Shown: piece by piece, positions 20,797-62,486 of the stretch | Layout: each line of letters opens with the position of its first letter | Numbering within the stretch: the stretch's first letter is position 1 | Notes under the pieces: generated by a model | What the model was told of the DNA's origin: nothing | The model's input: only the letters and a program-made list of their open reading frames with translations | Databases searched by the model: none | Source: Candidatus Binatia bacterium | Lineage (GTDB): Bacteria > Desulfobacterota > Binatia > UBA9968 > JAJDTQ01 | Assembly: GCA_963664535.1 (NCBI GenBank) | Contig: OY761465.1 | Location: 3,565,178 to 3,629,177, forward strand | Length of the DNA stretch: 64,000 nt | Reading direction: 5' to 3' | Program-made: the position numbers and the translations under genes

Positions 20797-20873
20797 GGGC
20801 CCATAGCTCAGTTGGTTAGAGCCACCGGCTCATAACCGGTAGGTCCCTGGTTCGAGTCCAGGTGGGCCCACCA
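20797..20873 (+). tRNA. tRNA-Met (CAT anticodon), CCA encoded
   Basis: gggcccatagctcagttggttagagc...ggCTCATAAcc...ggttcgagtcc...tgggccca + cca. Cloverleaf with a 7-bp acceptor stem GGGCCCA/TGGGCCC and anticodon loop CT-CAT-AA. Confidence 0.85.
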
Positions 20874-22690: not shown

Positions 22691-22844
22691 CCGGATGACC
22701 CTTCGTCAATCCGGCCTACGGCGTTCCGGGACGCCCTGTCCCGATCACCGCCGCATTGCCCGAAAGGTCGCCGGCTGGTAGCCTCGGCTCCCGGACAGAA
22801 CGCCGGCGGATCCATCCGGCGCGGCCGCGCACAACCAAGGAGGC

Positions 22845-23934: not shown

Positions 23935-24744
23935 TCAGCCCAGCTCGGGGTAGCCCTGGGCCGTGGCGAGGCGTTTGAACTCGACAATCCGGTCGTATGC
24001 GGAAAGCGGTAGGATCTCCACGCCGTCGATGAACACGGCGGCGCCGGCGACGCGTACCTCCGGCTCGTCGAAGGCTTCCAGGAGCGCACTCTGTAATTGC
24101 CGGATTCGAGTCGAATCGCTGCCGGCCCGCGTCACAAAGGGTATGCCGGGGGCGTGCTCCGTGTAGCAGAGCGGGCGGGTCCCTTGGAGCAGGGAAGGGC
24201 GGTAGCGTTCGAGACAGGCATACGTAACGCAGTCGATGGCGGCGACATCGGCGTCGCCCCGCGCGACCGTGGCGACGCTCGCGGGGTGGGAGCCGCTGGT
24301 GGCGATCCGCGAGAAAAAGCGGCCCCGCTGGCTCAACGGCGCAACCAGCGCTTGGAGCGCGTTCGCCCCCGAGTGGGACTCGTGGCTGTTGACCACACAC
24401 ACCGTGTTGCGCAGGTCCGAGAGCGCCGCGGCTGGCGAATCCTCGGCGACCATGACCACGCTCGAGTACCGGCCCCCGTCGCAACCGGGCGCGGAGTAGA
24501 GCGGCGTGGCCACCAGGGCAAGGTTTCCGGCGTAGCGGCCGACGAGGTCGGCCCCGCAGCACTGGCTGAGCAGCAGCCCCGGATCGGTCCAGAACTCGTG
24601 GACGCTCCGGGATCGATCGAGGGCCGCGGGGACCCCCTCCACTCCCGCCTTTTCCAGCTTCCGCGCGACACGGTTCCAGATGACCTCGTGGGCGCCGCGC
24701 GCCTCCTCGAAGTCGTACATCGGGAAGCTCGCCGAGAGCGTCAT
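23935..24744 (-). CDS. PhnD/SsuA-like substrate-binding domain protein (phosphonate-ABC-type SBP fold) without obvious signal peptide; the start could alternatively be 24825
   Basis: MTLSASFPMYDFEEARGAHEVIWNRVARKLE...PLYSAPGCDGGRYSSVVMVAEDSPAAALSDL..., PhnD-family-like. Confidence 0.6.
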   Translation of the reverse strand: MTLSASFPMYDFEEARGAHEVIWNRVARKLEKAGVEGVPAALDRSRSVHEFWTDPGLLLSQCCGADLVGRYAGNLALVATPLYSAPGCDGGRYSSVVMVAEDSPAAALSDLRNTVCVVNSHESHSGANALQALVAPLSQRGRFFSRIATSGSHPASVATVARGDADVAAIDCVTYACLERYRPSLLQGTRPLCYTEHAPGIPFVTRAGSDSTRIRQLQSALLEAFDEPEVRVAGAAVFIDGVEILPLSAYDRIVEFKRLATAQGYPELG

Positions 24745-24860
24745 CGGGTGAGTTCGCAATCGGTGCTCGAAGTCGTCAGGGGGCAATGGTCTGGTCTCTG
24801 GGAGGTGAAATCGATGCGGCGTCATCTACCCTATACCTGCCCGTGAGCCTCGGCATCAAC

Positions 24861-25025
24861 CTAGTGTCCTGTCCCACGTAATTCATTACCAATCTGCTTG
24901 TCTTTCTTGTCGTCGACTGCGTTGCTCTTCCTCGTGTGGTGCCCGCCACTGCTCGTCATCGCGCCTTGCCGACAACAAGAAATCCTGCGCATCTTGGTAA
25001 AGAATTACGTGGGACAGGACACTAG
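24861..25025. mobile_element. MITE-like element copy 1 (165 bp) with 24-bp perfect terminal inverted repeats CTAGTGTCCTGTCCCACGTAATTC
   Basis: 24861-24884 is the exact reverse complement of 25002-25025. The internal ~115 bp is ~85% identical, in inverted orientation, to the internal part of the element at 28914-29079. The right terminus supplies the ureG stop codon. Confidence 0.6.
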
Positions 25026-25636
25026 AGCCCGCCCGTTTGCATGATGAAATCGACGACCTCTGCCAGCCCGGTTTGCTTGCGCAGGTTCGAGAACACGAAG
25101 GGCCGGTCGCCACGCATCTTGCGGGCGTCGCGGTCCATGATGTCCAGGCTCGCGCCCACCAGCGGGGCCAAGTCGATCTTGTTGATGATGAGCAGGTCCG
25201 AGCGCGTGATGCCGGGACCGCCCTTGCGCGGGATCTTGTCGCCGGCGGAAACGTCGATGACGTACAGCGTCAGGTCCGCCAGTTCCGGGCTGAATGTGGC
25301 GGCGAGGTTGTCGCCTCCGGATTCGATCAGGATGAGGTCGAGGCCCTCGAACCTTTCGTTCAGCTCCCGGACCGCGCCCAGGTTGATGGAGGCATCTTCG
25401 CGGATGGCCGTGTGCGGACAGCCGCCGGTCTCCACGCCGACGATGCGTTCCTCCGGTAGAGTGCCGGCGCGGACCAGGAAGCGGGCGTCCTCCTGCGTGT
25501 AGATGTCGTTGGTCACCGCGGCGATCTGGTAACGGTCCCGCATGGCCTTGCACAACGCGTTCATGAGGGCGGTCTTGCCCGACCCCACCGGGCCGCCAAT
25601 GCCCACCCGCAGGGGTCCGTGCGTACCGGCGGTCAT
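25022..25636 (-). CDS. ureG: urease accessory GTPase UreG
   Basis: [18 protein letters not shown]-loop and the CPHTAIRED metal-binding motif. Confidence 0.95.
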
Positions 25637-26322
25637 GAGCGGAACAGCCTCGTGTGTTGCGTTTCGTGTTTCATGGAACTCCAGTCCACCATGGGAGTCA
25701 TGGTCCCCATGTCCTCCGGGCTTGTCGTCAGGGAGTGTTGCGCCGCCTCCAACACCACGGGTTCGAGCCGCACCAGCACCGTCTGGCCGTCGCTCTGGCC
25801 CAACGGGATCAACCTCATTCCGGCGGAAACCAGGTTAGCCGCGAAGGCCTGGATATACGTCTGTAGCGCCGGTTCGAGCGGAATGCCATGGGCGCCGCAG
25901 GCCCATCCCACGGCGACGCAATAGGATGCGGGACACGACGGCTCGGTGAGCGGAGCGAGGCCGGCCGCGTCCCAGGCCTTCGCCACGGCGCTCACGAAAG
26001 CCTCCCCCTGGGCGCCGCTCTCCAGCGCCAGCTCATGGGTGCCGCGGGACGCCGCGGCGATTTCCGCCACTTCCCGCAGCCGCGCCCGGTCCCCGTCGCG
26101 GGCGGCGTGCCAAGCGTTGCGGAAGAGCACCGCGTCCACTTGGCAACTGCCGTGGACCAGGATTCCCCGGATCCATTCCTTGAGCCCGGCCCCGTCCAGG
26201 ACATGTTCCGCTTCCACCGCATACTCCAGGCCATGGCTGTAGGCAAAGGAACCCACCGGGAAGGCCGGTGACAGCCAACTCATGAGCCGGTACAGGTCGC
26301 TACTCCGGATGGATTCTCGCAT
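25633..26322 (-). CDS. ureF: urease accessory protein UreF (start uncertain: 26346, 26322 or 26283)
   Basis: [32 protein letters not shown] parallels the UreF N-terminus. The stop overlaps the ureG start. Confidence 0.85.
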
Positions 26323-26770
26323 GGTTCGTATGCTCCCGCGAAACATATGCGCCGGCCTCCGGATCGAACGGGGCCTCGACGATGCGGACTTGTCCGCCCA
26401 AGACCGCGGCCAGCCCGGTGATCACGTGGTCGTTGCGGATGCGCAGCCGACCATTCTCGATCTGCGTGGGCACGTGCCGGTTCCCCAGGTGCCAGGCGAT
26501 CCGCGTAAGTCTCCCCGGGTCATCGCAGGCAATCTCGGCGAGGATCTCGTCGGCCGCACGGACCAGGACCCAACCGCCGCTCTCCAACTGGAGGCCATCG
26601 CCGTCGTGCATCACGGCCGCCTCTCGCAGGTCCAGCATCACCCAACCGCCGCCGTCGGTCTTGAGCCGTGTCCGCCGCCGGTGCCGCCCGTCGTACGGAA
26701 GGGTCACCGTGCCGCGTGCCGAGTGTCTCGGCCACTGTCCCGCCGGGCGCGTTCTGATGGCTCGTTCCAT
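26300..26770 (-). CDS. ureE: urease accessory metallochaperone UreE (no His-rich tail)
   Basis: Hidden in the C-terminal part of the spurious 743-aa ORF. MERAIRT...WVLVRAADEILAEIACDDPGRLTRIAWHLGNRHVPTQIENGRLRIRNDHVITGLAAVLGGQVRIVEAPFDPEAGAY matches the UreE core (HLGNRH...PF.PEAGAY). Confidence 0.8.
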   Translation of the reverse strand: MERAIRTRPAGQWPRHSARGTVTLPYDGRHRRRTRLKTDGGGWVMLDLREAAVMHDGDGLQLESGGWVLVRAADEILAEIACDDPGRLTRIAWHLGNRHVPTQIENGRLRIRNDHVITGLAAVLGGQVRIVEAPFDPEAGAYVSREHTNHARIHPE

Positions 26771-26793
26771 GATCACGGGTGTCCGCCGGCGCG

Positions 26794-28503
26794 TCAGAAG
26801 AGAAAATACCGCTGCGCCATGGGCACGGTCCGCGCCGGTTCGCACGTCAGCAGCTCGCCGTCGGCGCGTACCTCGTAGGTTTCGGGGTCCACCTCCATGC
26901 GCAGGGTGGCGCCGTTGTGGATCAAGTCTTCCTTGCAGAGGTCTCGTGTTCGCTTCACTGGAAGGAGTGGCCTCCGGAGTTGCAGCGCGCCGGCGAGATC
27001 GGCGTCGAGCGCCGCGGCGCTCACGAAGGTGACAGTGTTCTCGCGTCGCGAGCCGCTGAAGGCGCCGAACATCGGCCGGTAGTGCACCGGCTGTGGGGTC
27101 GGGATGGAGGCGTTGGGGTCGCCCATGGGCGCGGCGACGATGACGCCGCCCTTGAGGATGACGTCTGGCTTGACGCCGAAGAAGGCCGGCGACCACAGCA
27201 TCAGGTCGGCGAGCTTCCCCGGTTCCACCGATCCGACGTATTCCGATATGCCGTGGGTGATGGCCGGGTTGATGGTGTACTTGGCCAGGTAACGCTTTGC
27301 CCGGACATTGTCGTTGTCCGCCGTCTCCGCGGAAAGCCGGCCGCGCTGGCGCTTCATCTTGTCCGCGGTCTGCCACGTGCGGATGATGACCTCGCCCACG
27401 CGGCCCATGGCCTGGCTGTCGGACGCCATCATGCTGAACGCGCCCAGGTCGTGCAGGATGTCCTCGGCCGCCATGGTCTCCTTGCGGATGCGGCTTTCCG
27501 CGAAGGCCACGTCCTCGGCGATGGCCGGGTCCAGGTGATGGCAGCACATGAGCATGTCGAGGTGCTCGTCCACGGTGTTGACGGTGAAGGGCCGCGTCGG
27601 GTTGGTGGAGGAGGGCAGCACGTGGGAAAGGCCGCAGAGCTTGATGATGTCGGGCGCATGGCCGCCGCCGGCGCCCTCGGTGTGGAATGTGTGGATGGTG
27701 CGGCCCTTGAACGCCCGCAGGGTGTCCTCCACGAAGCCCGATTCGTTCAGCGTGTCCGTGTGGATGAGCACCTGCACGTCGTAGGCGTCGCCCACGGACA
27801 GGCATGTGTCGATGGCGGCCGGTGTGGTGCCCCAGTCCTCGTGCAGCTTCAGGCCGCAGGCTCCCGCCCGGACCTGCTCCTCCAGAGCCGCGGGCCGGCT
27901 GGCGTTGCCCTTGCCGAAGAAGCCCAGGTTCACCGGGAACGCCTCCGCCGCCTGGAGCATGCGGCCCAGGTGCCAGGGTCCCGGCGTGCAGGTGGTGGCG
28001 TTGGTGCCCGCCGCCGGTCCCGTACCGCCGCCGAGCATGGTGGTGACGCCGCTGAAGAGTGCGTCTTCCACTTGTTGGGGACAGATGAAGTGGATGTGGA
28101 CGTCGAGCCCGCCCGCGGTGACGATCTTGCCCTCGCCGGCGATGACCTCGGTGCCCGGCCCGATGATGTTGTCCACCGCCGGTTGCGTGTCCGGATTGCC
28201 GGCTTTGCCGATGGCGTGGATACGGCCGTCCCGGATGCCGATGTCCGCCTTGACGATGCCCCAGTGGTCCAGCACCAGGGCGTTGGTGATGACCGTGTCG
28301 ATCGCGCCTTCCGCCCGGGTGGCCTGGCTCTGACCCATGCCGTCGCGGATGGTCTTGCCGCCGCCGAACTTCACCTCGTCGCCGTAGACCGTCCGGTCCT
28401 CCTCCACCTCGATAAAGAGCTCGGTGTCCGCCAGCCGGACCCGGTCCCCGACCGTTGGTCCGAACATGGCCGCGTAGGCCGCACGCTCGATCTTTCTTGC
28501 CAT
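26794..28503 (-). CDS. ureC: urease alpha subunit
   Basis: [27 protein letters not shown]..., the HxH metal ligands and the flap region. The start was chosen at an internal Met of the listed ORF. Confidence 0.95.
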
Positions 28504-28571
28504 GGGTCGCCTTTCTTGCTTCGCTCCGCATCGCCGCACGCGCGGTGGCGTGGGCGGGACGGCCGGACCGT

Positions 28572-28880
28572 TCAGTCCAACGGTCCGTCGACCTTGCCCT
28601 GGAACCCCACGACCGCGCGTTTGCCGGCGTAGCCCACCAGGGTGACGGTGCGGGTCTGTCCGGGTTCGAATCGCACCGCGGTGCCGGACGGGACGTCGAG
28701 CCGGAAGCCCCGGGCCTTGTCGCGGTCGAACACGAGGGCCTCGTTGGTCTCGTGGAAGTGGTAGTGGGAACCCACCTGCACCGGGCGGTCGCCGCTGTTG
28801 GCCACGTCCAGCGTTACCGTCTCGCGCCCGGCGTTGAGGGTGATGGGTGCCCCCTTGGTGAGAATCTCTCCCGGTATCAT
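28572..28880 (-). CDS. ureB: urease beta subunit
   Basis: [46 protein letters not shown], with an aggaggg RBS. Confidence 0.9.
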
Positions 28881-28913
28881 TGAAGTCCCTCCTGTCTTGT
28901 TGGTCCCCTCACG

Positions 28914-29079
28914 CTAGTGTGGTGTCTGGTTAATTCGCATAATAATATGCGGAGGATTTTTCGTTGTCGGCAAGGCGCGATGACGAGCAGTGGCCGGGTA
29001 CCACGCGAGGAAGAGTAACGCAGCCGACGGCGAAAAAGACCCGCAGATTATTATGCGAATTAACCAGACACCACACTAA
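28914..29079. mobile_element. MITE-like element copy 2 (166 bp) with ~33-bp terminal inverted repeats (CTAGTGTGGTGTCTGGTTAATTCGCATAATAAT), inserted between ureA and ureB
   Basis: 28914-28946 is the reverse complement of 29047-29079 (one terminal mismatch). The internal sequence is homologous to copy 1 in the opposite orientation. Confidence 0.6.
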
Positions 29080-29082
29080 CTG

Positions 29083-29385
29083 CTACCGGATCGGATCGTG
29101 GACGCTCACGAGTTTGGTCCCGTCGGGGAACGTAGCCTCCACCTGGATGACCTCGATCATTTCGGGAACGCCTTCCATCACCTGCCCGCGGGTGAGGACC
29201 GTGGCGCCGTCGCGCATCAGGTCCGCAACGCCCTTGCCGTCTCGCGCCCCCTCCACCACGAAGTCCGTGATCAACGCCACGGCCTCCGGGTGGTTGAGCT
29301 TGACGCGGCGCTCAAGCCTGCGTCGAGCAACCGTCGCGGCCATTGCCACCAGAAGCTTGTCCTTTTCCCTGGGCGTCAGGTTCAT
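29083..29385 (-). CDS. ureA: urease gamma subunit
   Basis: [51 protein letters not shown]... is close to canonical UreA. Confidence 0.95.
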
Positions 29386-29431
29386 GCTTCACTCTCCGTC
29401 TTGATTCAGGCGGTTTCCTTGCCTTCCCACC

Positions 29432-29447
29432 CTAGTGTCCACACTAG
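29432..29447. repeat. solo 16-bp palindrome CTAGTGTCCACACTAG (joined-termini footprint of the CTAGTGT MITE family) at the ureD/ureA junction
   Basis: It is a perfect palindrome, shares the CTAGTGTCC terminus with copy 1, and provides the ureD TAG stop. Confidence 0.4.
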
Positions 29448-30307
29448 CACTCCCATACGCGCGGCAGCCGCTCCGGCAGGCCCGCCACGGCATGACGAAA
29501 GGCGGTCCAGAAGCGCGCGTATTCGGTGCGCAGCACCCATGGGTCCCGTGCCAGGAACCGGGCCACGAGCACGCCGTTGACACAGGTGACGGCGCACCGG
29601 GACTGGTTCCCGTCGAGCAGGCCGCGGGCGGTTTCGAGGTGTTGCGCACCGTCGTCCGCGACGTACAAGGCGGTCGCCAACGATCGAGCGCCATCCATGC
29701 CGGCCCGGTGCTCAAGGAGAACGCTTTCCGGCGCGCCGTAGCGCAGCGCTTCCATCCACACCCGCCGGCCGTCGCGCTCGACGGTCCAGGCATCGCGCAA
29801 TGCGCCGTTGCGGAAAACCTCGCCGCGGGCCAGGCGGCCGAACACGAGGGTCTCGCCGGCCATGATGCGGGCGCCGTCCGTGGCGCGGACGGTGGTGGCG
29901 CGGCGCAGCCGGGCGCCGTCGAACAGGATGGTTTCCTGCGGCATCCATTCCATCCAGGTCTCCTTCCCGGCCGTGATCCGCACATCGACGGTGCAGGGTT
30001 CGCCCGCGGAGCGGTAGATTTTCTCGGCGGCCTGCGTCGTTATCACGGCCCGCGCGCCCTGGCGGACGGCGAGGTCCAACTCGATCCGGTCCCCGCCGGT
30101 GAGTCCTCCGGAGGTGGTCAGGACCACCGCGGTCGCGAGGTCGGTGGTGCCCGGGAAGAAGACCCGGCAGGGGTTCCTCTGGTACAGGTGCCGAAGCCGG
30201 GTCGCTCCGTGGACCGGGCCGAAGACGATCTCCGCGCGGCCGTCGCCGCGCGGCAGCCGCGCGTGCGCGCCTTCAGACGGTAAGGTGCTTGCGCACGTCA
30301 CGCTCAA
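29444..30307 (-). CDS. ureD: urease accessory protein UreD (UreH)
   Basis: 287 aa with UreD-family similarity (..LTTSGGLTGGDRIELDL...). It overlaps the urtE 3' end. Confidence 0.85.
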   Translation of the reverse strand: MSVTCASTLPSEGAHARLPRGDGRAEIVFGPVHGATRLRHLYQRNPCRVFFPGTTDLATAVVLTTSGGLTGGDRIELDLAVRQGARAVITTQAAEKIYRSAGEPCTVDVRITAGKETWMEWMPQETILFDGARLRRATTVRATDGARIMAGETLVFGRLARGEVFRNGALRDAWTVERDGRRVWMEALRYGAPESVLLEHRAGMDGARSLATALYVADDGAQHLETARGLLDGNQSRCAVTCVNGVLVARFLARDPWVLRTEYARFWTAFRHAVAGLPERLPRVWEC

Positions 30308-36258: not shown

Positions 36259-36359
36259 CGTCATTCCCGCGAAAGCGGGAATCCAGGGTTGGAGGGGACG
36301 CCACGGCCATACTTCCGCCGCTCCACCCCACCTGAATTCCCGCTTTCGCGGGAATGACG
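36259..36359. repeat. pair of inverted REP-like palindromic units (CGTCATTCCCGCGAAAGCGGGAATCCAGG...) in the urtA upstream region
   Basis: 36259-36300 and the reverse complement of 36326-36359 are near-identical. Each unit is itself a hairpin (ATTCCCGC-GAAA-GCGGGAAT). The same unit recurs at 46019 and 62365/62433. Confidence 0.55.
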
Positions 36360-49462: not shown

Positions 49463-50683
49463 TTGATTTGCCGCCCTCGATACACAAGAGCAACTGAGAC
49501 GATTGGACGAACCTTGGAGCGTGAACCCCCAAAACCCAATAGTGTACTTCGAAGCTCCCTGGAACTTCCCTGTGGCGCGATCCTGAAAAATCGACTGGCA
49601 AAGTCAGCCATGTCGGATTCGCTTGGGAACGGCGAAGGTGATCCCACCGAGGCTCAGATCCGACTCTACGAAAGATGGGCGGAAGGCGGAGTCGCCGTGT
49701 CGATCATTGGTGAGGTTCAAGGTGATCCTCGCTATCCGGAGAAGCCTGGAAATCTGGTGTTCGGAGCACACACCGATCGGCAGGCGATGAAGTCCCTGGT
49801 CAGCCGTGCCACGATCGAGGGCGCTCATGTTTGGCCGCAACTCGGTCATGCCGGTGCTCTTTCGCACCTGCCGATCAGTCGGCCGAAAGGGCCGTCGGCG
49901 CTGGATATCCAAGGTCTTCAATGTGCAGGAATGTCAGTCCAGGACGTTCAGGAACTACCTAGCATGTACGCAAGGACCGCGGCCTATGCAAAGAACGCAG
50001 GATTTGGCGGCGTTCATGTTCACGCCGGGCACGGATTTCTGCTCAGTCAATTCCTGTCGCCATTGTTCAACCGCCGGGACGACGGTTACGGCGGTTCGAT
50101 CGAGGCACGATGCCGAATAGTGCTCGAAGTGATCGACGAAGTGCGCCGTGCGGTCGGTCGGCCGTTTCCCGTCGGGATCAAGATCAACTCGACGGACAAA
50201 CTGGAAGGCGGATTGACAGAGGCTGATGCTTTGGAGGTGGTCCGCCTTCTCGATCGAACCTCGGTCGATCTAATCGACATCAGCGGCGGGACCTATTTCC
50301 CCGGAGCGAAGGCAAGCTCCGAGGGGTCGTCGAACGACGGACCCTGTTTTCTTGAGTTTGCCAGACGCGCCAAAGAGGTAACCGATGTGCCGCTAATGTT
50401 GACGGGAGGCTTTGAACGGCGTGAGCAGGGGGTGGATGCGGTGGCTGGCGGTGCTGTCGACATGGTGAGTTTGGCGCGTGCCATGGTTCTTGAGCCGCGG
50501 CTCGCGGAGGTCTGGTTGACCGAGGAAGGTGGTGATCCCGAGTTTCCGATATTCGAATCCCCGCCCCGGGAAATGGGTCGTCAGTTTGTCAGCGGTATTG
50601 CGCGTCGGACTGCTAGCACCTTGTCTTGGCTGAGACACCGTTCCCTTCACACTAAGGATAACACGGAAATTCTAAGAAGCTGA
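49463..50683 (+). CDS. Old Yellow Enzyme-family NADH:flavin oxidoreductase (start uncertain; possible upstream TTG)
   Basis: LKNRLAKSAM...HVHAGHGFLLSQFLSPLFNRRDDGYGGSIEARCR...GGF motif pattern of the OYE/2,4-dienoyl-CoA reductase FMN domain. GC content drops to about 55% from here. Confidence 0.8.
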   Translation: MICRPRYTRATETIGRTLEREPPKPNSVLRSSLELPCGAILKNRLAKSAMSDSLGNGEGDPTEAQIRLYERWAEGGVAVSIIGEVQGDPRYPEKPGNLVFGAHTDRQAMKSLVSRATIEGAHVWPQLGHAGALSHLPISRPKGPSALDIQGLQCAGMSVQDVQELPSMYARTAAYAKNAGFGGVHVHAGHGFLLSQFLSPLFNRRDDGYGGSIEARCRIVLEVIDEVRRAVGRPFPVGIKINSTDKLEGGLTEADALEVVRLLDRTSVDLIDISGGTYFPGAKASSEGSSNDGPCFLEFARRAKEVTDVPLMLTGGFERREQGVDAVAGGAVDMVSLARAMVLEPRLAEVWLTEEGGDPEFPIFESPPREMGRQFVSGIARRTASTLSWLRHRSLHTKDNTEILRS

Positions 50684-51258
50684 TAACTGCCGGCGATTTC
50701 TAGACTAAGGCCAGTGGCATCCTTCTCCGCGGCCAACGTTTCTGCCCGCTCCGTGGCTGGATCGAGATTGATTTGGCGGGTGTGAGCCTCGAGTCCCTCC
50801 AATTCAGCCCTCTGTCCGCTGAGGTCTTTGAGAGCACGCCATACCTGTTGACCCGTTCTTGGCGGAAGCGTTCGGAAATCAATCCCGAAGTCGCGAAGAA
50901 GGTGTTCGACAGACTTCTCCGGGATGTTTTCCATCAACTGGCGGTAGGAAACGTCCGAGACCCGAACGAAGTTGGTTAGGGTCAGATGACGTTGAGCCGT
51001 TGTGACTTTGCGCCCAGAATCGGCGATACAAGCGTAAAGTGAACCCCAGATCCCGCGATCGATGTATTCGTACCCGATCACCTGAATCAGGCAGAGTTGC
51101 TTCTTGATCGTTTGGCCGACAACGTAGGGAATCGCATATGAGAAATGACGTCCCGCAGAGACAACCTCTTCAAGGTAATCCAACGTATCCTCAGGGTAGA
51201 CGTCCAAGACGCAGGAAACGCGTGCATCACTGTCCGCTGGTTGAACGCTAGATGACAT
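50647..51258 (-). CDS. hypothetical protein (203 aa) translationally overlapping the PIN gene
   Basis: The start overlaps the PIN stop by 11 nt. It has a C-terminal coiled-coil-like region. No recognisable family. Confidence 0.5.
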   Translation of the reverse strand: MSSSVQPADSDARVSCVLDVYPEDTLDYLEEVVSAGRHFSYAIPYVVGQTIKKQLCLIQVIGYEYIDRGIWGSLYACIADSGRKVTTAQRHLTLTNFVRVSDVSYRQLMENIPEKSVEHLLRDFGIDFRTLPPRTGQQVWRALKDLSGQRAELEGLEAHTRQINLDPATERAETLAAEKDATGLSLEIAGSYQLLRISVLSLV

Positions 51259-51817
51259 CCTTGTGATTCCAAAGAACTGAGGCCGTTCGAGCGAGCCCCA
51301 GTCTCTCGAGCGCGGTTAGATGTTCCATGGATGACCGCGGAGGGTTCCTCAATGCGGCACGATGGCCGCGGACGGCGGCAAGAACGGCTTTGGGCTGAGA
51401 TTCAAGAAGACCGCCAATGAAGTCATCGGGATGTTGTGCTTCCAGCCCATGTGGTGCCAGCCGGTCCGCGGGAAAATCCCGCAGGTTGAGGGTCACGATT
51501 ACGCTGGCACAACCGTGGATCGCCGCCGCCAGAACATGGCGGTCGTGGACATCAGGGAGGTCGAGTTCCGCGATGAGAGTTTCGTAACCGGAAACGACCG
51601 CCTCGGGAAAGTGCTCGTCCATGATCGAACGGGTGCGCTCCAGCCTGGCGACTGTGAGATCGGGCCGGTCGGCGAGAAGGTTGGCGATCCATTCTTCATG
51701 AATCGCGATGCTCCAAAGCGGTTGGTACAAGTATTGATCCGCCAGGCGCAGAAGAAAGTCTCGAAGGCCACCGGGATACAGGACGTTGGCGTCGAGTAAC
51801 GCCGTCAATCGGTTCAT
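51248..51817 (-). CDS. PIN-domain nuclease (type II toxin, TIGR00305-like)
   Basis: MNRLTALLDANVLYPGGLRDFLLRLA...VHDRHVLAAAIHGCASVIVTLNLRDFP has the acidic PIN signature residues (D9, D/H...). Confidence 0.7.
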   Translation of the reverse strand: MNRLTALLDANVLYPGGLRDFLLRLADQYLYQPLWSIAIHEEWIANLLADRPDLTVARLERTRSIMDEHFPEAVVSGYETLIAELDLPDVHDRHVLAAAIHGCASVIVTLNLRDFPADRLAPHGLEAQHPDDFIGGLLESQPKAVLAAVRGHRAALRNPPRSSMEHLTALERLGLARTASVLWNHKDVI

Positions 51818-51820
51818 CGG

Positions 51821-52294
51821 CTATTGCAAGCCGAGTTTCTGATCCTGGGCAGTCAACTCGTCCAGCGCATCTCGGCGACGAGACTCCGTATCCCGACGAT
51901 AGGCGAGAATGTCTTCGGTCCGCACACGCCGATGTGAGCCGACCTTACGGCATGGGATTCGTCCCTCGTCGAGCAACCGTACCAGGAACGTCCTCGAAAC
52001 CTGCAGGAGATCGGCCGCTTGCCGTGTGGTCAACTCGGCCTGAACCGGTGTCAACGCAACTGTATTGCCACGCGCCATCTGATCCAGAATCTCGCGCAGA
52101 AGCCGTAGCGCTTGGACGGGAATCTCGACCGTTTCCTCGCCGGCCGCGCCAAATCGAACCGGAACCGGCTCAGTCCCATCCGGCAACTCTGCCAGTTTCC
52201 TGCCGATATGGTCGGCAAGAAATGCGTCCCGGCCGCTCGCAAACCCAGTCTCTCCGTCCTTCATGGCTCGATTTCCCATTGGCACCGCCTCCAT
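51821..52294 (-). CDS. excisionase-family HTH (HTH_17/MerR-like) DNA-binding protein, putative antitoxin
   Basis: LTTRQAADLLQVSRTFLVRLLDEGRIPCRKVGSHRRVRTEDILAY is the excisionase-family HTH. Its stop lies 3 nt before the PIN start. Confidence 0.65.
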   Translation of the reverse strand: MEAVPMGNRAMKDGETGFASGRDAFLADHIGRKLAELPDGTEPVPVRFGAAGEETVEIPVQALRLLREILDQMARGNTVALTPVQAELTTRQAADLLQVSRTFLVRLLDEGRIPCRKVGSHRRVRTEDILAYRRDTESRRRDALDELTAQDQKLGLQ

Positions 52295-53030
52295 TTCGAC
52301 AACGGCAATACTTACTCAACTAACATAAATACCATATTCGCTGCAAACGACACGTTTCAGGCTCCCATAGGTCTAGGAGTCTGCGCCGTAGAAAAATGTC
52401 GTGGGACAAAGCCCCACATTCGCACCAAAATCGCACCCATCATGGGACACGCAACCAAATTGCCGCCACTTTGGACGGAAACTTGGTCGTGCGATCCCGC
52501 CGTCCACGTCCAGAAGCGTTCTGCAGCGCAGACTCCTAGGTCACTTGAACTGTTCCCCTTGAATGGTGTGTCCTTCTTAACCTTCTTTCCGTGCCATTAA
52601 ACACAGAGAGGAGGGAGTCGTGGTCCGGCTGGGACACAGCCGAAAGGCAGTCCCAAACGAGACGCGGCTGACGAGGTAGCAGTCTATCGCTGGCGGATTG
52701 GATCAAGGATGTGGCGCTGGAGCATCCGGCCTAGGCAACCGACCGGAAACGATAGCAATGTTTGAGGGCCGGCGTGTGTCGTGGATGGCGATCCGAAGAT
52801 TCTCAACGACAGCGGCCCGGGCCCACGCCCGGGTCGCGGCCGACGCTGGAGAAGTGGACCGCGGACATGCACTGGAGTTGACTGCGGAGAGAGGCGGTGT
52901 TTCCCGAGAAGTTCAATCCGTGAAGTAGCGCGCGCGAGCACCCCAACAGTCGGTGAGTCGCAGCCGAGCAAAACTTGTCCGTTGCACGCGAACAGTACTG
53001 AGCGATCCTACCACCGACAGTGGTGCCGTG

Positions 53031-56000
53031 TTAACTCCGAAGCCTCTTGGCGATCTTCGCTCTCGAATCTTGCCAGTTGGCATCGTGGTCGTAGGTAACG
53101 GCAATATCCTCGAGGATTCCACCGACGTAAGGATAGTCGAAGTGGAGCTGCTCGGCCCAAGCACGATATCTTGCGGCGAGCTCCCGCTCCTGCTGGCCCC
53201 CTTCGCCCCGCCAGTGAACGCCGCGAGAGTTGCAAGCACCGATGACGAGTCCTCTGCCGATCTCCGAGGACGCTACCTCCTCCATTGCCTCGCAGACTGC
53301 TTTGCACGGCCATAAGCCGTCTTCGTCCTTGGGCGCCTTGGCAAGGAGTTGACCGAGCCAAAGATCGCCAGCCTCGACGCGGCCGTACTCGCGACAAAGG
53401 CGCCGCACCCCATCAAGCCACTTTGATAGTGCCACCGCGTCAATTTTACCGTTCTCGTCTTTGCCGGGAATCACTTCCAATCGATCGAGAAGGCGATAGG
53501 CTGCCCTTCTGACTGAAGCTCGCTGTTCTGGGTCTTCGACCAGCCATTCCGGCGGGTCTTCTTCTTCGTCACTTCGCTCGTATGTGAGGGCAATCGCCTG
53601 GACGAACGATATCGGTGACTGCGCAATCATGCGTTCGAGATTCGGAATCCCGTGCTTGCTGTGATCGAGGACATCGATGTAGAGGAATTCCAATTCAGCC
53701 ATTTCACCACGGGTGATACCCGCACGACCATCAAGCACCTCGAATGCTTCGGAAATAAAGTGCCCGTCGATCTTGAAATGGCCTGCTGGTTCGGCGTTGC
53801 CCGTGGCGACGTCACGCAGCAGCCGCTTGAGGCGGGACGTCTCGACATGCTCAATATTCATGTGGACGGCGCGGAAAGCTGCGCGTGGCCGGGCAGCGTC
53901 CAGAAGGCCATCCATGAGTTCGGAGAGTTCGGCGGGCGTGTGTCGGTGGCAGACAGGGTACACTTGCTTCCAGTATCCAACGCGGATGTCCTCTCCTTCA
54001 CCGTCGAGCAGACGCCACGTCGAGTCTCGGAACGGCGCATTTACAAACAGGCGCGTACGTTCGTCGGGGGGCATTACTCTGGCTGCGGCCTGTAGCACCT
54101 TGGTGCGAGAGTCGTCTTCAATGGCCCAAAGGGCACCCTGTAGACACGACTCGGCTTCATCTCGAAGGTCTTCATCAAGAGAAAGGCAGCGCCGGATGAA
54201 CTCAACTCGTTCATCAACGTTGGGAACGCACGATATCGCATATTGGCCAACCGTGTGGGCGGCACCGGTGGCAGTCAGCAGTTCCTTGACACCTTCGAAA
54301 CCATACTCTGCCCAGATGTCGTTCATCGCTTCCCGGCGCAGCCTGTCGATACGGTCGTCGCGTTTTTGCCAGTCGAAGTCCTCGTCATCGAATTCGTCAG
54401 CGGATTCCTGTACCCACTGATTGGCGAACAGCCAACGATGCCGGGCAACCGGATCTTGGGGTTGGAGTTTTTCGTAGGTCTCCCGCGCGCGGTCGCGGGC
54501 TGTTTCTCCGATCTTCAGGTGGCGGGCACGCCGGGTGAGGGCAAACCGTCTGATGCGTTCGCGTAACGCGGCCTTGGCAGATTCGCTGGCGTTAATGGAC
54601 CATCCGTCGATCAAATCCCAGACCTTGGTCTGTTCGTCCTCGGGAATGCCTTCGAGTGATTCGACGAGGTCGCCAAGAGTCGTTTCATCGTGGGACGGCC
54701 ACGCGACTATGAGGTCTAGCGCCTCTCGAGTGAAGTGATGAAGTTCCTTGTAAGTGACTACCTGCCCGGCCCCGGAGGCGTCACTACGCCAACGGGGCCT
54801 GTAGCTGTCGTGCCCGAACCGTGGACCGCGCTTGATTTGCTCGATACAGATCTCCCAACCGACATTGGGAAAATTCCTGACGAGCGCTTTCAACGCTTTG
54901 ATCCTCTGTTCCAATGTCGCTGCTGTCTGTGGCATCCAAGATCTGAAAATGGCCTGCAGGCTGGCGTCCGGTTTGTTAACCCAGTTGTCGTCGATTTCTT
55001 GCCTGGAAAGGCGAGCGAGGATTTTGGTTACCCGCGAGAGGTTGCTGGGGTTCCATGCAAGGCACTCCATGGCCCAGAGCAGACCAGTCCGTGAAGGAGA
55101 CAAGAATATCGAGCCGCTGTCGACCGGCTTGAGAAGGCCGAAGACCACGGGTTCGTCTTGGCGTAGGTCACCTTCGATGATCTTTAGGAATTCGTCGGGT
55201 GCGGCCTCTGCAAAGTACGGCAGGTTTTGGTCGTGCGAGAGCAGCTTCTCAAGTGCCAAAGGCGTCAAGAGTTTAAGGATCAGACCAGAAACTCTGGCTT
55301 CAGCATCGAGCCCGATACGGTCCCGGAGCAGGTTGTTTCCATGTACTGACAGGATCACGAGTGTCTCGCAGATTCCCTTACGTAGAGCGTCGGAGTGCTC
55401 ATGGGTCTTGTCATAAAACACTGCAGCCCACCTGTCGTCTTCCGGCAGGTCAAGGGCAGGATCAGTCTCGGAAAGCACAATTGCGGCGGCGGAGAAGAAC
55501 CGATCGAGGTCTGCTGGTGTGATCATCCTGGCAATAGCGAACAAAGCATCGATTTTTGAGACGACCCCCCGGTGGCTACCGGCGGACCACGCTGGGCTGT
55601 CATCGAGCTGAAGCAAGGGCATGACGTTACCTTCGACCGCCTCGTATTTCCGATCCGCCACATAGGCCAATATCTTGCGGTCCGCTTCCCGCTTAGTGTT
55701 CCAGGCTCCGATCAGGGCCATAGGTACGAGGGCTTTCGCGGTATCGTCATCGCCTGCCCAGACCGGCGTTCTGATCGCGGCGTTCTTTGAGAGGCGGCGA
55801 CGAAGGATTGTCGGCGAGCAACCGGATTCCCTTGCCAGCCGATCCATTTGGTCCCGTGCAACTCCGGCGGCATTTAGGGCCTTCCTAAAGGCCTCATGAC
55901 CGAGAAGATCAAGTGTGATATCCGCATTAACATTCACGTCATTGCGAGGTCGGAAAACGATGCCGTGAAGTCGGCGATAGGCGTCGGCAAGCTCGCGCTC

Positions 56001-57098
56001 GACATCCTCGGAGACAACGATCGGAATGAACGGTACTGACGACGAAATCAGAGTTCGAAGAGTCGGAGGAGATGTGAAAATCGCGGTAAGGTCTTTGGAT
56101 TGATGGAACTCTTGCACATCAAACAGGCAAGCAAGGAAGGCGAGTGCTTCGTCCCGTGAGTCAGCCGAGACGACAAATGGCTTGTTGCTCGGGTTGGTGA
56201 GCCACTTCTTGAAAGTGCCTTGGTACGCTGCGATCGAAGGTGCGAAGATTTCGGGTGTCAGATGTGGCTCGCTGGCATTCGCCCATCGATTCCATGCTTG
56301 CTCAAGAGTCTCGTACCCGTTGACCGGCAATCCAACTTGCTCGGCAAACCAGATCTGCGCTGGCACGGACTGCTCCAGCCACTGCTCGATGTCGCTCGCA
56401 TCGAATACTCTGACTGCCTTCCAGTCTCCAGCCTCATTTTTCAGTTTTTCCCAAGTCGTCTTGCCTGCCCAGTTGCGGGGGGTGACAAAAACGAAGGTGC
56501 TCTTGGCACGTTCGGGGCGGCCAACCGAGATCAGGCGGGAGGAATAGTCGTTCTCTGCTTTGACACGGGACTCTTTGTTGGTGCCGAACTCCCAATGGGA
56601 CAGCCCTTCGGGAACCCAGGGGGTGGCGGCGGACGCTTCGACAAAACCATCGTCGCCTTTGCGTTGGGCGTTGTCGTAACCGGGGAAGTCGACCCTGAGA
56701 AGTCCGTTGCCCGTTGATTGCACCAACTTTCGCAGCAACACGGGTAGGTGAGTGCGCGCATCAATTTGGCCGGCCCAATCCTCGATCTGTCTTGCGGTGA
56801 TGGTCAGGAAACTGGGCACGAAGGCGCGTACCGCGACGGCCCTTTCCCCAACCTGTCGCTCTTGCAGGTCGTGCGCTGACTGCATGTCCAGCAGTCTCTG
56901 ACGGTCGGCGCCAAACGCCTTCTCCAATCTGACCGCCATCTCCGGGGACAGGGCAGATCTCCCGTTTAGGAAGTTCGACAGCGCTGGGCGGCCTATGCCG
57001 AGTCGGTTGGCCGCGTCTTTGACTGTCATGCCAGACGGAATGACGTTTTGCCGGACAAAGGTGCCTGGATGCTGGTGTAAATCCGGATGAGCTTTCAT
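53031..57098 (-). CDS. 1355-aa protein: N-terminal HigA/XRE-type HTH domain fused to a ~1250-aa region of unknown function
   Basis: N-terminal MTVKDAANRLGIGRPALSNFLNGRSALSPEMAVRLEKAFG is a HigA-family antidote HTH. The rest has no recognisable P-loop, nuclease or protease motif. It is a single long ORF in a lower-GC island. Confidence 0.7.
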   Translation of the reverse strand: MKAHPDLHQHPGTFVRQNVIPSGMTVKDAANRLGIGRPALSNFLNGRSALSPEMAVRLEKAFGADRQRLLDMQSAHDLQERQVGERAVAVRAFVPSFLTITARQIEDWAGQIDARTHLPVLLRKLVQSTGNGLLRVDFPGYDNAQRKGDDGFVEASAATPWVPEGLSHWEFGTNKESRVKAENDYSSRLISVGRPERAKSTFVFVTPRNWAGKTTWEKLKNEAGDWKAVRVFDASDIEQWLEQSVPAQIWFAEQVGLPVNGYETLEQAWNRWANASEPHLTPEIFAPSIAAYQGTFKKWLTNPSNKPFVVSADSRDEALAFLACLFDVQEFHQSKDLTAIFTSPPTLRTLISSSVPFIPIVVSEDVERELADAYRRLHGIVFRPRNDVNVNADITLDLLGHEAFRKALNAAGVARDQMDRLARESGCSPTILRRRLSKNAAIRTPVWAGDDDTAKALVPMALIGAWNTKREADRKILAYVADRKYEAVEGNVMPLLQLDDSPAWSAGSHRGVVSKIDALFAIARMITPADLDRFFSAAAIVLSETDPALDLPEDDRWAAVFYDKTHEHSDALRKGICETLVILSVHGNNLLRDRIGLDAEARVSGLILKLLTPLALEKLLSHDQNLPYFAEAAPDEFLKIIEGDLRQDEPVVFGLLKPVDSGSIFLSPSRTGLLWAMECLAWNPSNLSRVTKILARLSRQEIDDNWVNKPDASLQAIFRSWMPQTAATLEQRIKALKALVRNFPNVGWEICIEQIKRGPRFGHDSYRPRWRSDASGAGQVVTYKELHHFTREALDLIVAWPSHDETTLGDLVESLEGIPEDEQTKVWDLIDGWSINASESAKAALRERIRRFALTRRARHLKIGETARDRARETYEKLQPQDPVARHRWLFANQWVQESADEFDDEDFDWQKRDDRIDRLRREAMNDIWAEYGFEGVKELLTATGAAHTVGQYAISCVPNVDERVEFIRRCLSLDEDLRDEAESCLQGALWAIEDDSRTKVLQAAARVMPPDERTRLFVNAPFRDSTWRLLDGEGEDIRVGYWKQVYPVCHRHTPAELSELMDGLLDAARPRAAFRAVHMNIEHVETSRLKRLLRDVATGNAEPAGHFKIDGHFISEAFEVLDGRAGITRGEMAELEFLYIDVLDHSKHGIPNLERMIAQSPISFVQAIALTYERSDEEEDPPEWLVEDPEQRASVRRAAYRLLDRLEVIPGKDENGKIDAVALSKWLDGVRRLCREYGRVEAGDLWLGQLLAKAPKDEDGLWPCKAVCEAMEEVASSEIGRGLVIGACNSRGVHWRGEGGQQERELAARYRAWAEQLHFDYPYVGGILEDIAVTYDHDANWQDSRAKIAKRLRS

Positions 57099-57550
57099 TG
57101 TGTTGCCTCCCCTAAACTGGCCGATTCCTAATAAGCTACATTAGCGTGTAGCGCGATACGCAACACAATGCAGTCGCTTGTCTCGAATTTCTGGAAACTG
57201 ACGCAGCCACGCCACCGAGAAGGCCTACGTGCTTCAGCGGCGCTGTTCCCTTTGGTGGCTAGCCAGTGGTGCCGGAGCAACAGATTCGTCGACGCGGTTG
57301 ATCTCGTATGCTAGGTAGACTTGGATGCGCATGTCCGAAAAGCGGAGCCACTACCGGGGCCAAAATTGAGTTTCCAGAACGTCGTTGTTGGGAGTCCGGG
57401 GGGTACCTAGACAGAGGACGGAGCGACAGAGCCGCGTTGCAGCGCGCACAGACCAGAGTGAATCTGCTTACGATATGCTTACGACAAGGACCACGGCGCT
57501 CAGCGATCCACAGTTCATGATCCAATAAATGACAAGTATATCAAATAGTT

Positions 57551-59674
57551 ATGAGTGACTCCCGAGATCGGTACATGGTCGGGGTGGACGTCGGCGGCAC
57601 CTTCATCGACTTGATGGTGTCCGGCAACGGGCACCGCCTCATCCTCAAGATCCTGTCCGATCCCGCTGACCGCGCCGGCGCACTTCTGGCCGGCTTGGCG
57701 CTCGCGGGCGAGGAACTGGGGCTCACCCTGAAGGAACTGTTGGCGCGCACCGAAAGGATCATTCACGGCAGCACCATCGCCACCAATGCCTTGCTGACGC
57801 GCGGCGGCACGCGCACGGCGTTGCTTGCCACCGCTGGTTTCCGGGACGTGCTCAACATGCGCCGCGGGGTGCGTTCGAACCTGTACGATCCCAAGCAGGC
57901 GCCTCCCGACCCGCTCATTCCCAGACAGCGAATTCATCCCATCGCGGAGCGCATGGACAGTGATGGCGCGGTGTTGGAGGCGGTGGGCGAGGAATCCGTT
58001 GCGGAGGCCGTGGCGGGGCTCCGCCAGGCCGGGGTGGAAAGCGTCGCCGTGGGTTTCCTGTTCTCTTTCGCCAATGATGCCCATGAGTGCGCGGTGGGGC
58101 AGCGGCTCCGCGAAAGCCTGCCGGATGTGCACGTGTCTCTCTCCAGCGAGGTGCTGCCCGAGGTAAGGCTCTACGAGCGCCTCAGCACCACCGCGGTCAA
58201 CGCCTATGTGACGCCGGTGCTGGCGGCCTACCTCGGCGGGCTTGAGCGGCGTTTGTCGGACAACGGGTTCCGCGGCCGGCTGCTGGTCATGCAGTCCAGC
58301 GGCGGGGTCATGGGGCTGGACTCGGCCGCCCGGTTCGGCGTCCGGAGCATCCTGTCCGGCCCTGCCGCCGGGCCGGTTGCGGGGCTTTGGTACGCCGGCC
58401 TCCACGGCATTGCCAACGCCATCACCACCGACATGGGCGGCACGAGCTTTGACGTCTGCCTGGTCAACCGAGGCGAGGTGGAGGTGACCAAGGAGATGGA
58501 GATCTCGGGACACCGGATCGCTTTGCCCATGGTGGCGGTGCACACCATCGGCGCCGGCGGCGGCAGCATCGTGACCGTGGACGGCCGGGGTCTGCTGCAG
58601 GTGGGGCCCGAGAGCGCGGGCGCGACCCCCGGACCGGTGTGCTACGGCCGTGGCGGCGTCCGGCCCACCGTGACCGACGCGGACCTGCTTATCGGGTACC
58701 TGAGCCCGGACCGGTTCTGGGGTGGACGTCTCCGGCTCGACGAGGATACCGCCCGGGAGGCGTTCCGCCGGCATGTGGCCGAGCCCCTGGGCATGGACGT
58801 GGTACGGGCCGCCTACGGCGCCCATCAGGTGGTGAACGCCAACATGGTGGACGCCATCCGGGAGGTATCCGTGCGGCGCGGCCACGACCCGCGCGGGTTC
58901 GTGCTGGTGGCGGCGGGCGGCGCCGGCCCCATCCACGCCTGCGCCATCGCCCGGGAGTTGAACATCGGCTTGATCCTGGTGCCTCGGGAGGCGTCGGTCA
59001 TGTGCGCCGCGGGACAGCTCCTGTCCGACCTGCGCCACGACTTCGTGCGGAGCTGCGTGGTGCCTCTGGAACGGCTCGATCGGGACACGGTGGAGGGGCA
59101 TTTCCGGGACCTCCGGCGCGCGGCCGTGGAGGCCCTCCTGGCCGAGGGTGTTTCGCGTGATCGCATTGCGGTAAGCTGCGCGGTGGACATGCGTTACGTA
59201 GGGCAGTTCAGCGAGGTCGAGGTGCCCGTGCCCGAGGCCGAGCTCACTGAGGCCGTGGTCGCGAGACTGGCCGGCGACTTCCATCGGATCCACGAGTCGT
59301 TGAACGGTTACGGTATGCCGGACGCGGCCGCCGAGATCGTCAACCTGCGGGCGGTAGGAAGGGGGCTCGCCGACACCGAGCTCATGTCCGAGCGAAACGG
59401 TACCCCCGCCACGGCGTTGACGGGCCGCCGGAGGGCGTTTATCGAGGACGGATTCCGCGAGGTGCCGGTCTACGACGGCCACCGCCTGGCCTCGGGCGAG
59501 GATATCGCCGGCCCCGCCATCGTCGAGCAGGAGACCACCACGGTGGTGGTGACGCCGGAGTATCGGCTCACTTGCGACGCTTTCGGGAACTATCTCGTAT
59601 ACCTCGGGGAGCGCGGCCTGGCCGGGAGCCTGGCGCGGGTGAAGCGGGAAACGGCAGAGAAGGGCGGGGAGTAG
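57551..59674 (+). CDS. hyuA: hydantoinase/oxoprolinase family A subunit (HyuA-like)
   Basis: MVGVDVGGTFIDL ATPase N-terminus and full-length family similarity. Confidence 0.9.
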   Translation: MSDSRDRYMVGVDVGGTFIDLMVSGNGHRLILKILSDPADRAGALLAGLALAGEELGLTLKELLARTERIIHGSTIATNALLTRGGTRTALLATAGFRDVLNMRRGVRSNLYDPKQAPPDPLIPRQRIHPIAERMDSDGAVLEAVGEESVAEAVAGLRQAGVESVAVGFLFSFANDAHECAVGQRLRESLPDVHVSLSSEVLPEVRLYERLSTTAVNAYVTPVLAAYLGGLERRLSDNGFRGRLLVMQSSGGVMGLDSAARFGVRSILSGPAAGPVAGLWYAGLHGIANAITTDMGGTSFDVCLVNRGEVEVTKEMEISGHRIALPMVAVHTIGAGGGSIVTVDGRGLLQVGPESAGATPGPVCYGRGGVRPTVTDADLLIGYLSPDRFWGGRLRLDEDTAREAFRRHVAEPLGMDVVRAAYGAHQVVNANMVDAIREVSVRRGHDPRGFVLVAAGGAGPIHACAIARELNIGLILVPREASVMCAAGQLLSDLRHDFVRSCVVPLERLDRDTVEGHFRDLRRAAVEALLAEGVSRDRIAVSCAVDMRYVGQFSEVEVPVPEAELTEAVVARLAGDFHRIHESLNGYGMPDAAAEIVNLRAVGRGLADTELMSERNGTPATALTGRRRAFIEDGFREVPVYDGHRLASGEDIAGPAIVEQETTTVVVTPEYRLTCDAFGNYLVYLGERGLAGSLARVKRETAEKGGE

Positions 59675-62262: not shown

Positions 62263-62486
62263 CGTTCCCACTCACTTCTCCGTCATCCCCACTCACCTCT
62301 CCGTCATTCCCACTTACCTCTCCGTCATTCCCACTTACCTCTCCGTCATTCCCACTTACTTTTCCGTCATTCCCGCGGAAGCGGGAATCCAGGAAGAGTG
62401 CGGCGGGTGAACAGACTCGTTACAGCGCCTCCCCACCCCTGGATTCCCGCTTCCGCGGGAATGACGGAGAAGTGAGCGGGAATGAC
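62261..62486. repeat. composite palindromic repeat: 5 tandem 21-bp units (CGTCATTCCCACTYACYTCTC), a REP unit, a 32-bp spacer, an inverted REP unit and an inverted 21-bp unit
   Basis: Units at 62261, 62281, 62302, 62323 and 62344. REP 62365-62400. Inverted REP 62433-62465. gagaagtgagcgggaatgacg at 62466-62486 is the reverse complement of the 21-mer. The array lies between convergent genes. Confidence 0.6.

Follow-up and report, generated by a model that had tools for sequence, protein, structure and literature searches.

The closest known systems to the repeats described here are the Correia elements of Neisseria and the transposable elements of the miniature inverted-repeat kind (MITEs) linked to the insertion sequence (IS) IS630. 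Our subject is two hairpin-forming elements, E1 and E2, together with a 16-bp palindrome, in the urease operon of Candidatus Binatia bacterium (assembly GCA_963664535.1, contig OY761465.1, positions 3,565,178 to 3,629,177; "the window" denotes this whole stretch of 64,000 nucleotides). E1 and E2 belong to a hairpin MITE family of which we found no description; it is frequent among Candidatus Binatia genomes and, as a selfish element, is of an ordinary kind, set apart from the known systems by its co-varying arms. Like these elements, the Correia repeat enclosed elements (CREEs) are about 100-160 bp long, with inverted repeats around a conserved, oriented core, and target TA; they occur in hundreds of copies near genes with which they are co-transcribed, their hairpins have been shown to be RNase III substrates, their ends may be promoter-like, and no transposase is known for them (PMC2649163). 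However, they inhabit another host phylum, and the comparison is one of architecture only, a sequence relationship not being established. Moreover, CREE end variants combine independently into symmetric and asymmetric forms, whereas the Binatia arms co-vary strictly, and neither a CTAG context preference nor regeneration of TAG stops is described for CREEs in PMC2649163.

The IS630 family shares the TA duplication, and a preference of IS630 for TA within 5'-CTAG-3' is reported (Tenzen & Ohtsubo 1991, as cited in PMC2170065); the pneumococcal RUP, a 107-bp MITE, has terminal inverted repeats (TIRs) resembling those of IS630-Spn1 (PMC3049150). Yet ISY100, of the same family, needs only its 24-bp TIRs (PMC2170065), while in the Binatia family the corresponding positions are mostly free and it is the core that is conserved. 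REPINs, pairs of repetitive extragenic palindromic (REP) sequences mobilized by the REP-associated tyrosine transposase (RAYT), are likewise short, abundant intergenic hairpins whose stem pairing is kept by compensatory change; the Binatia family differs from them in its TA duplication, variable arms, and conserved loop region, although RAYT genes were not searched for. REPINs are not known to duplicate a TA, and what is conserved in them is the REP arm, which carries a GTAG/CTAC motif. The R''/R' sites of integron attC (RYYYAAC ... GTTRRRY) are not matched, the ends being TAGTGT...ACACTA in all copies. We found no description of this repeat family in the literature and no paper linking Binatia with inverted repeats.

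E1, E2, and their family

That the family is a TA-duplicating MITE is well established, and we consider it very probable that E1 and E2 are, as a whole, best explained as copies of a non-autonomous DNA transposon of ~160 bp, with the ends GTGT...ACAC, that inserts into TA. The urease operon is complete on the minus strand, its genes running from 30307 down to 25022, with an ABC ATPase gene upstream and a periplasmic binding-protein gene downstream (both by Pfam). The features are as follows:

25022..30307, minus strand: host operon ureD-ureA-ureB-ureC-ureE-ureF-ureG (Pfam-confirmed), with the elements in its intergenic gaps
24861-25025: whole of E1, between ureG and the downstream periplasmic/substrate-binding-protein gene
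24864..25022: E1 proper, GTGT...ACAC, core in plus orientation, arm type CC/CCACGTA
24861-24897 and 24989-25025: arms of E1, 37 nt, 92% complementary
24862..24863: left TA target-site duplication of E1, flanking C at 24861
25023..25024: right TA duplication of E1, forming with the element's last base (25022) the ureG TAG stop, minus strand
28914-29079: whole of E2, between ureA and ureB
28917..29076: E2 proper, core in minus orientation, arm type GG/TGGTTAA
28915-28952 and 29041-29078: arms of E2, 38 nt, 97% complementary
28915..28916: TA duplication of E2 on the ureB side, 33 nt from the ureB ATG (28878-28880), Shine-Dalgarno sequence intact
29077..29078: ureA-side TA duplication of E2, originally a T-TA-G target, 4 nt downstream of the ureA stop (29083-29085)
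29432..29447: mini-palindrome CTAGTGTCC/ACACTAG, comprising both element termini and both TAs and overlapping the ureD stop (29444-29446)
28942..28970, minus strand: promoter-like CCGACA-17-TATTAT inside E2, facing ureB, a consensus match only

The substrate-binding-protein gene (23935-24825, minus strand) starts 35 nt downstream of the left TA of E1. E1 and E2 are 86% identical in the core and just 52% in the arms; their cores share a 31-nt exact match on opposite strands, with a chance expectation of 0, and the apical region of E2 carries a 1-nt insertion. Folding of the element is far more stable than that of shuffled sequence, both as RNA (-99.6 kcal/mol, z = -12.3) and as DNA (-46.8 kcal/mol, z = -8.5). 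The terminal motif CTAGTGT occurs five times in the window, always within E1, E2, or the 16-mer (1.43 expected; five were reached in 2 of 100 shuffles).

To collect further copies, species-representative metagenome-assembled genomes (MAGs) were scanned with an exact 22-mer from the core, which matches at least 100 genome blocks in 18 of them, labeled Candidatus Binatia or, under older names, Deltaproteobacteria, Thermodesulfobacteriota, or Syntrophobacterales. An nhmmer search over 816 kb of loci fetched from these matches (given L numbers below) yielded 120 matches, 90 of them full length. A single genome of 3.97 Mb accounts for 15 seed-containing blocks, and 10 aligned copies from it are 91.5-98.8% mutually identical; numerous short-read contigs terminate within copies. 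The nearest relatives of E1 are the copies in L088 and L033 (92-93%), and those of E2 the copies in L067, L048, and L005 (94.6%); the window itself shares 85-92% identical synteny with two family-bearing genomes and so belongs to their lineage. The core had no match in viral contigs and E2 none in plasmids, nor did Rfam match the elements, either in the whole window at the gathering threshold or in their region at E-values up to 10.

A first-pass annotation, made from the sequence alone, had proposed a MITE-like family represented by two ~165-bp elements with interiors ~85% identical in opposite orientation. The recurrence of the core in the MAGs, along with the empty orthologous sites described below, bears out the family, and the two elements and their interior relationship stand as described; the TIR length of 24-33 bp given there does not, the arms measuring 37-38 nt. 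The same annotation had held that an element unique to this locus would favor locus-specific regulatory palindromes, and such uniqueness is excluded by the 90 full-length copies in other loci.

From the TAGTGT to the ACACTA end, 63 of 74 copies measure 160-169 bp, a size also given as 163-166 bp for the same number of copies. The remaining 11 are longer (174-190 bp from flanking C to G) and contain a nested GC-rich, REP-like hairpin. These hairpins, found in L014, L031, L040, L049, L058, L064, L074, L080, and L101, lie just after the apical hairpin, always at the same spot of the core, in copies of differing arm types, and take the forms GGGGCGACC-NNN-GGTCGCCCC and GGGCGGGTTTCAAACCCGCCC, often followed by TAC; some copies hold separate REP-like GC hairpins with CTAC at the end. 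These nested hairpins mark a hot spot of repeated insertion or else an old variant of the core.

Target sites, remnants, and stop codons

A metagenome scan with UreD as the query recovered two contigs whose UreD is 98% identical to that of the window and which reach into ureA-ureB. Both lack E2 exactly, in that their spacer equals that of the window minus the element and one TA, as seen at the junction, given here in two renderings:

Window, ureA-ureB junction: ...GCAGT-TA-[E2]-TA-GCGTGAGG
L103, empty: GCAGTTCGTGTGAGG
L102, empty: GCAGCAAGCGTGACGG
Window, alternative rendering: GGTAGCAGT-TA-[E2]-TA-GCGTGAGGGG
L103, alternative rendering: GGTAGCAGTTCGTGTGAGGGG
L102, alternative rendering: GGTAGCAGCAAGCGTGACGGC

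Comparison with the urease operons of relatives, which had been suggested as a check, thus finds E2 absent from the junction in both. Elsewhere, L056 is occupied where L067 reads ATTCCAGCGCC, one base off ATT-CTAG-CGCC, while at a converse site L067 is occupied and L056 empty; a further site occupied in L084 is empty in the window. Since orthologous sites are empty in relatives, the family is mobile. Separately, an arm-like relic, CGTTCTGTCCGGGAG, lies at 22788-22802 (minus strand) of the window, and the orthologous spot of L084 holds a similar relic beside a full element (436-600) that the window lacks.

TA stands at both ends of all 74 copies. In an alignment of 62 copies, C or T (once G) precedes the left TA, and any of G, A, T, or C follows the right TA; these two outer bases vary without regard to one another, whereas the G and C just within the TAs (element positions 4 and 163) are invariant; the duplication is therefore the 2-bp TA and not a 4-bp CTAG. 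About 90% of the reconstructed targets conform to C-TA-G (C at -1 in 67 of 74, G at +1 in 66 of 74), with no preference further out, and three pairs of tandem copies each have one TA in common. The element inserts into TA, with a strong preference for C-TA-G, and duplicates the TA.

At the ureD stop the same target bears different occupants in different genomes:

Window, sense strand: GAGTGC-TA-GTGTGG/ACAC-TA-GGGTGG
L103: the window palindrome with two substitutions
L102: GAGTGCTAGCGTGGTGTCCGGTTAGG, in which the initial ~20 nt of a GG-type arm can be recognized
L101 (UreD 96%): at the identical TA, an element whose arm type differs

Of the L101 element at least the left arm and some of the core are present, since the contig breaks off within it. 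The 16-mer of the window, CTAGTGTCCACACTAG at 29432-29447 on the ureD/ureA junction, has 7-bp arms around a CC spacer and looks like the collapsed remnant of a GG-type copy. The interior of this older copy was probably lost by a hairpin-promoted internal deletion, and the TA of the ureD stop appears to have been hit at least twice. Comparable mini-palindromes, with both termini kept at 8-13 nt per end, are found directly beside a full copy in L012 and in L034, and ~45-bp relics in L056, L067, and L088. ISY100 cuts 2 nt inside its 5' ends, leaving a TA-2nt-TA junction (PMC2170065). The 16-mer retains 6-8 nt of each element end and the Binatia mini-palindromes span 14-23 nt; such remnants keep too much of the ends to be canonical excision footprints. 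A second orthologous site, occupied in L052 (578-741) and L068 (3582-3746) by copies with unrelated arms, looks like a case of site reuse.

Stop coincidence was scored against open reading frames (ORFs) of at least 80 codons with high G+C at third codon positions. Of 148 element ends, 33 coincide with a stop codon, compared with 5-6 in control frames, with a sharp peak at distance 0, and 29 of 74 elements (about 39%) supply the stop of at least one neighbor. As to which end of the oriented core is turned toward the upstream gene, the counts are 13 and 19, with no orientation bias. CTAG itself is about 13-fold depleted in the fetched loci, with 203 sites outside elements against about 2600 expected, and 26% of these free sites are stop codons. 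The coincidence of element ends with stops matches this availability, so that no dedicated targeting of stop codons is involved, and an insertion into a TAG stop is harmless, because the G at both element ends rebuilds TAG with the TA; the host protein would remain unchanged. The association with stop codons follows from this target preference and harmlessness: CTAG is scarce in genomes of 65% G+C and a quarter of its sites are stops, so copies build up in operon spacers and where genes end, and one and the same TA is hit repeatedly. Two side observations from the fetched loci concern the same sequences: the CTAGs at element termini are almost as numerous as those in the remaining DNA, and TAG makes up roughly 43% of stop codons by crude ORF calling. 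A share of this size is unusually high for bacteria. The pneumococcal BOX repeat, which encodes the stop codon of 36 genes (PMC3049150), offers a parallel, but in the Binatia family the overlap is mechanical, arising from the TA target and the terminal G, and leaves the protein unchanged.

These results revise what had been said of the sites in the first-pass annotation, which placed a CACTAG terminus on or against the stops of ureG, ureA, and ureD. This is so at ureG (25022-25024) and ureD (29444-29446) but not at ureA, whose stop lies 4 nt outside E2, the end there reading CACTAA. Targeting of CTAG survives in a refined form, as a duplicated TA flanked by C and G with the element proper beginning at GTGT; the proximity to stop codons is genuine, with the proposed targeting of stops as such falling away. 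The reading of the 16-mer as two joined termini is supported by the L101 element and the L102 arm relic at the same TA, yet its palindrome is not perfect owing to the CC spacer, and a collapsed remnant describes it better than an excision footprint, since it keeps more than the 2 nt that an IS630-type excision leaves.

Variable arms, conserved core, and the mobilizing enzyme

In the alignment the termini are invariant at positions 2-7, and the conserved arm positions are TGTC at 10-13, AA at 19-20, and AATCTGC at 31-37. Perfect 31-bp arms occur in 26 of 62 copies and a single mismatch in 22, with one to four arm mismatches in 36 altogether. Three observations bear on how this complementarity arose: the mismatched copies; a copy in L070 (686-828) that is chimeric, with non-matching arms, and looks like the product of recombination between copies; and the L052 and L068 copies at their shared site, each of which resembles other copies of its own genome. 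Given that such copies exist, complementarity is set in the transposing lineages and not restored after insertion. Among 57 mismatches, G-T pairs number 7 and are thus outnumbered by the others, which indicates that pairing is kept at the DNA level rather than for RNA. As guides for other genomic sites the arms were a rejected candidate, with one 2-mismatch match in 880 kb.

An IS630-type enzyme acting in trans is the most likely, but unproven, mobilizer: an IS630/Tc1-mariner-type DDE transposase would move the element. In L057 a 30-residue fragment of an IS630-type transposase (LPAYSPELNLDEFVW...NALG, also rendered as …LPAYSPELNLDEFVWNDWKNNALG) runs directly into the right-hand 100 bp of a copy, and the best plasmid matches of this fragment are annotated as IS630 family transposase. 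The TIR of IS630 relatives from Paraburkholderia and Ralstonia (Burkholderiaceae), TA-CTGACGTGTGCACCAAATAGTGCG, agrees at 14 of 24 positions with several arm types in register, an agreement equaled by 72 of 5000 shuffles; this resemblance is suggestive only. A six-frame scan for the YSPELN-type motif found the L057 fragment only, long-range TAGTGT/ACACTA inverted repeats of up to 4 kb were confined to clustered MITEs in L080, all-vs-all blastn for repeats of at least 400 bp recovered only orthologous synteny, and the truncated copies inspected held no transposase genes.

Several observations weigh against the explanation preferred here. No autonomous element with matching ends was found in the 816 kb of loci or the window, and a protein database search with a 56-residue L057 query matched no entry. 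The right MITE half, tried as the C-terminus of an IS630 protein, has no similarity to the tail of the Paraburkholderia homolog; it encodes no expected transposase tail, so that rearrangement may have produced the L057 junction. No part of the element varies more than the arms (mean pairwise identity 60%, minimum 22%), and 25 of 32 outer-stem pairs are changed on both sides, almost without G-T intermediates. The core, by contrast, is 91% identical with the seeded 22-mer and the variable apical tetraloop excluded, and 97.8% of stem cells are paired, as against 82% in shuffles and 29-48% with the partners slid, doubly changed cells numbering 475 against 160 in shuffles; both core conservation and pairing are inflated by the exact 22-mer seeding and by the additional filter for arm complementarity of at least 22 of 30. 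The ISY100 transposase protects its whole 24-bp TIR (PMC2170065), which misfits the more than 20 arm types that coexist here, common to several genomes, and makes the arms unlike ordinary transposase-binding TIRs.

This strict Watson-Crick covariation, the contrast between arms and core, the coexisting arm types, and the missing cognate IS would all be accommodated by a structure-dependent mobile element, whose enzyme recognizes a folded hairpin or cruciform through its conserved termini and core, with a stem that need only pair, by the logic of REPIN/RAYT or attC and not by an IS630 transposase binding duplex TIRs. The arm modules at positions 8-9 and 14-20, for which all four combinations occur, add a four-gamete pattern suggesting that arms were exchanged and then made complementary again. 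Against this, a symmetric TA duplication with a CTAG preference is a hallmark of IS630/Tc1 DDE chemistry, and we know of none for RAYT, IS200/IS605, or integrases. Furthermore, the conserved arm positions are spaced about one helical turn apart, as for a bipartite helix-turn-helix contact on duplex DNA, and the mismatched and chimeric copies imply that complementarity is not enforced after insertion. We accordingly rate structure-dependent mobility as improbable. In a more specific form of folded-DNA mobilization, which we likewise hold to be unlikely, the enzyme would read the TA-GTGT termini and the ~90-nt core, while ~25 variable stem positions need only pair and the arm sequence would be free to drift or be exchanged provided that complementarity is restored. 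If true, a transposon that duplicates TA would have its ends recognized by structure and not by sequence, and to our knowledge no bacterial MITE combines the two.

The other alternatives concern the origin of the ends or a function for the host. Elements of the IS5 group target YTAR/CTAG, and CTAG at both ends of about 80% of copies could point to a MITE from an IS5-family element (IS5/IS427 group) that duplicates a 4-bp CTAG, the element proper then being TGT...ACA; such an origin predicts identical flanking tetramers, whereas TTAG...CTAG, CTAG...CTAA, CTAG...CTAC, and GTAG...CTAG are seen, the inner G and C are invariant, and no IS5-type gene was seen in the loci, making it very unlikely. 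A host-selected regulatory structure, viz., an RNase III site, an attenuator or terminator, or a small RNA gene adjusting urease stoichiometry, would draw on the very stable RNA hairpin, the operon-spacer location, the conserved core, the promoter-like motif in E2, and the modulation of neighboring genes by Correia elements (PMC2649163). The empty sites in relatives with 98%-identical UreD refute this as the origin; in addition, the opposite orientations of E1 and E2 mean that the ure mRNA carries different core strands, the family shows no orientation bias, the covariation avoids G-U pairs, no T-tract follows the hairpin, Rfam has no match, and copies adjoin unrelated genes across the 18 genomes, so that we give this reading hardly any weight. 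The minus-core strand contains a 32-codon ORF (MTSSGGYHARKSN...) that the terminal TAG closes; from its ATG to that TAG it is open in 52 of 62 copies, and it has an AAGG motif upstream, as though the element encoded a small protein. Its C-terminal third, however, comes from the hypervariable arm with no amino-acid conservation, the core substitutions are non-synonymous and follow base pairing, the E2 version is frameshifted (MTSSGRVPREEE*), and a mirror-image frame is open on the other strand, as palindromy predicts; in the absence of coding constraint across copies we rejected this hypothesis, to which we assign next to no probability. A TA-inserting MITE, most likely served in trans by an IS630-type enzyme, remains our preferred explanation.

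Other features of the window and consequences for the host

A further element, E3 (52373-52539), is 167 bp long with 21-nt inverted ends (CTAGGAGTCTGCGCCGTAGAA) flanked by C-TA...TA-G. Its interior is unrelated to E1 and E2, its termini give no matches in the fetched loci, and it is probably a different TA-targeting MITE family. It lies within a low-GC island (50000-58000; 57-58% against about 66%) whose genes include a PIN_3/HTH_17 pair and one for a 1355-residue protein (53031-57098, minus strand) whose sole match, to HTH_3, is N-terminal; no transposases were found in the island around E3. A second repeat family, at 36259-36359 and 62265-62487, consists of inverted pairs of CGTCATTCCCGCGAAAGCGGGAATCCAGG, each unit containing the palindrome ATTCCCGCG-AAA-CGCGGGAAT, and is accompanied by a 21-nt tandem array (TTCCCACTTACCTCTCCGTCA, 5.2 copies, 62265-62374); we take it to resemble the dRS3/NIME repeats of Neisseria. 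Rfam additionally reports a tRNA gene at 20797-20870 (plus strand, 71.7 bits) and a strong match to 5_ureB_sRNA (117.8 bits, 28062-28351, plus strand) antisense to ureC, for which the conserved coding sequence of urease alpha is the likeliest source, and not a conserved antisense RNA.

The urease operon carries the elements as selfish passengers. E2 appears to lengthen the ureA-ureB spacer from 41 to 206 nt with the ureB ribosome-binding site untouched, and E1 and the 16-bp remnant should leave UreG and UreD unchanged. If co-transcribed, their perfect stems of at least 31 bp would give rise to a long double-stranded RNA within the ureA-ureB spacer and downstream of ureG, and such transcribed stems are plausible RNase III substrates, judging by the Correia hairpins. 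Any effect on urease is probably limited to possible changes of mRNA processing between ureA and ureB.

Beyond this operon, the family is abundant in an uncultured lineage (Candidatus Binatia and relatives), where it breaks short-read assemblies and can mislead the annotation of gene ends and operon spacers. It offers a mechanical reason for small repeats to overlap stop codons, in that a TA target in a CTAG context and a terminal G together rebuild TAG, and an instance of the repeated use of scarce targets in a CTAG-depleted genome. With arms that are hypervariable yet complementary and a core that is conserved, it inverts the textbook MITE, and its copies are a natural source of data on what is read at transposon ends by an IS630-type or other enzyme.

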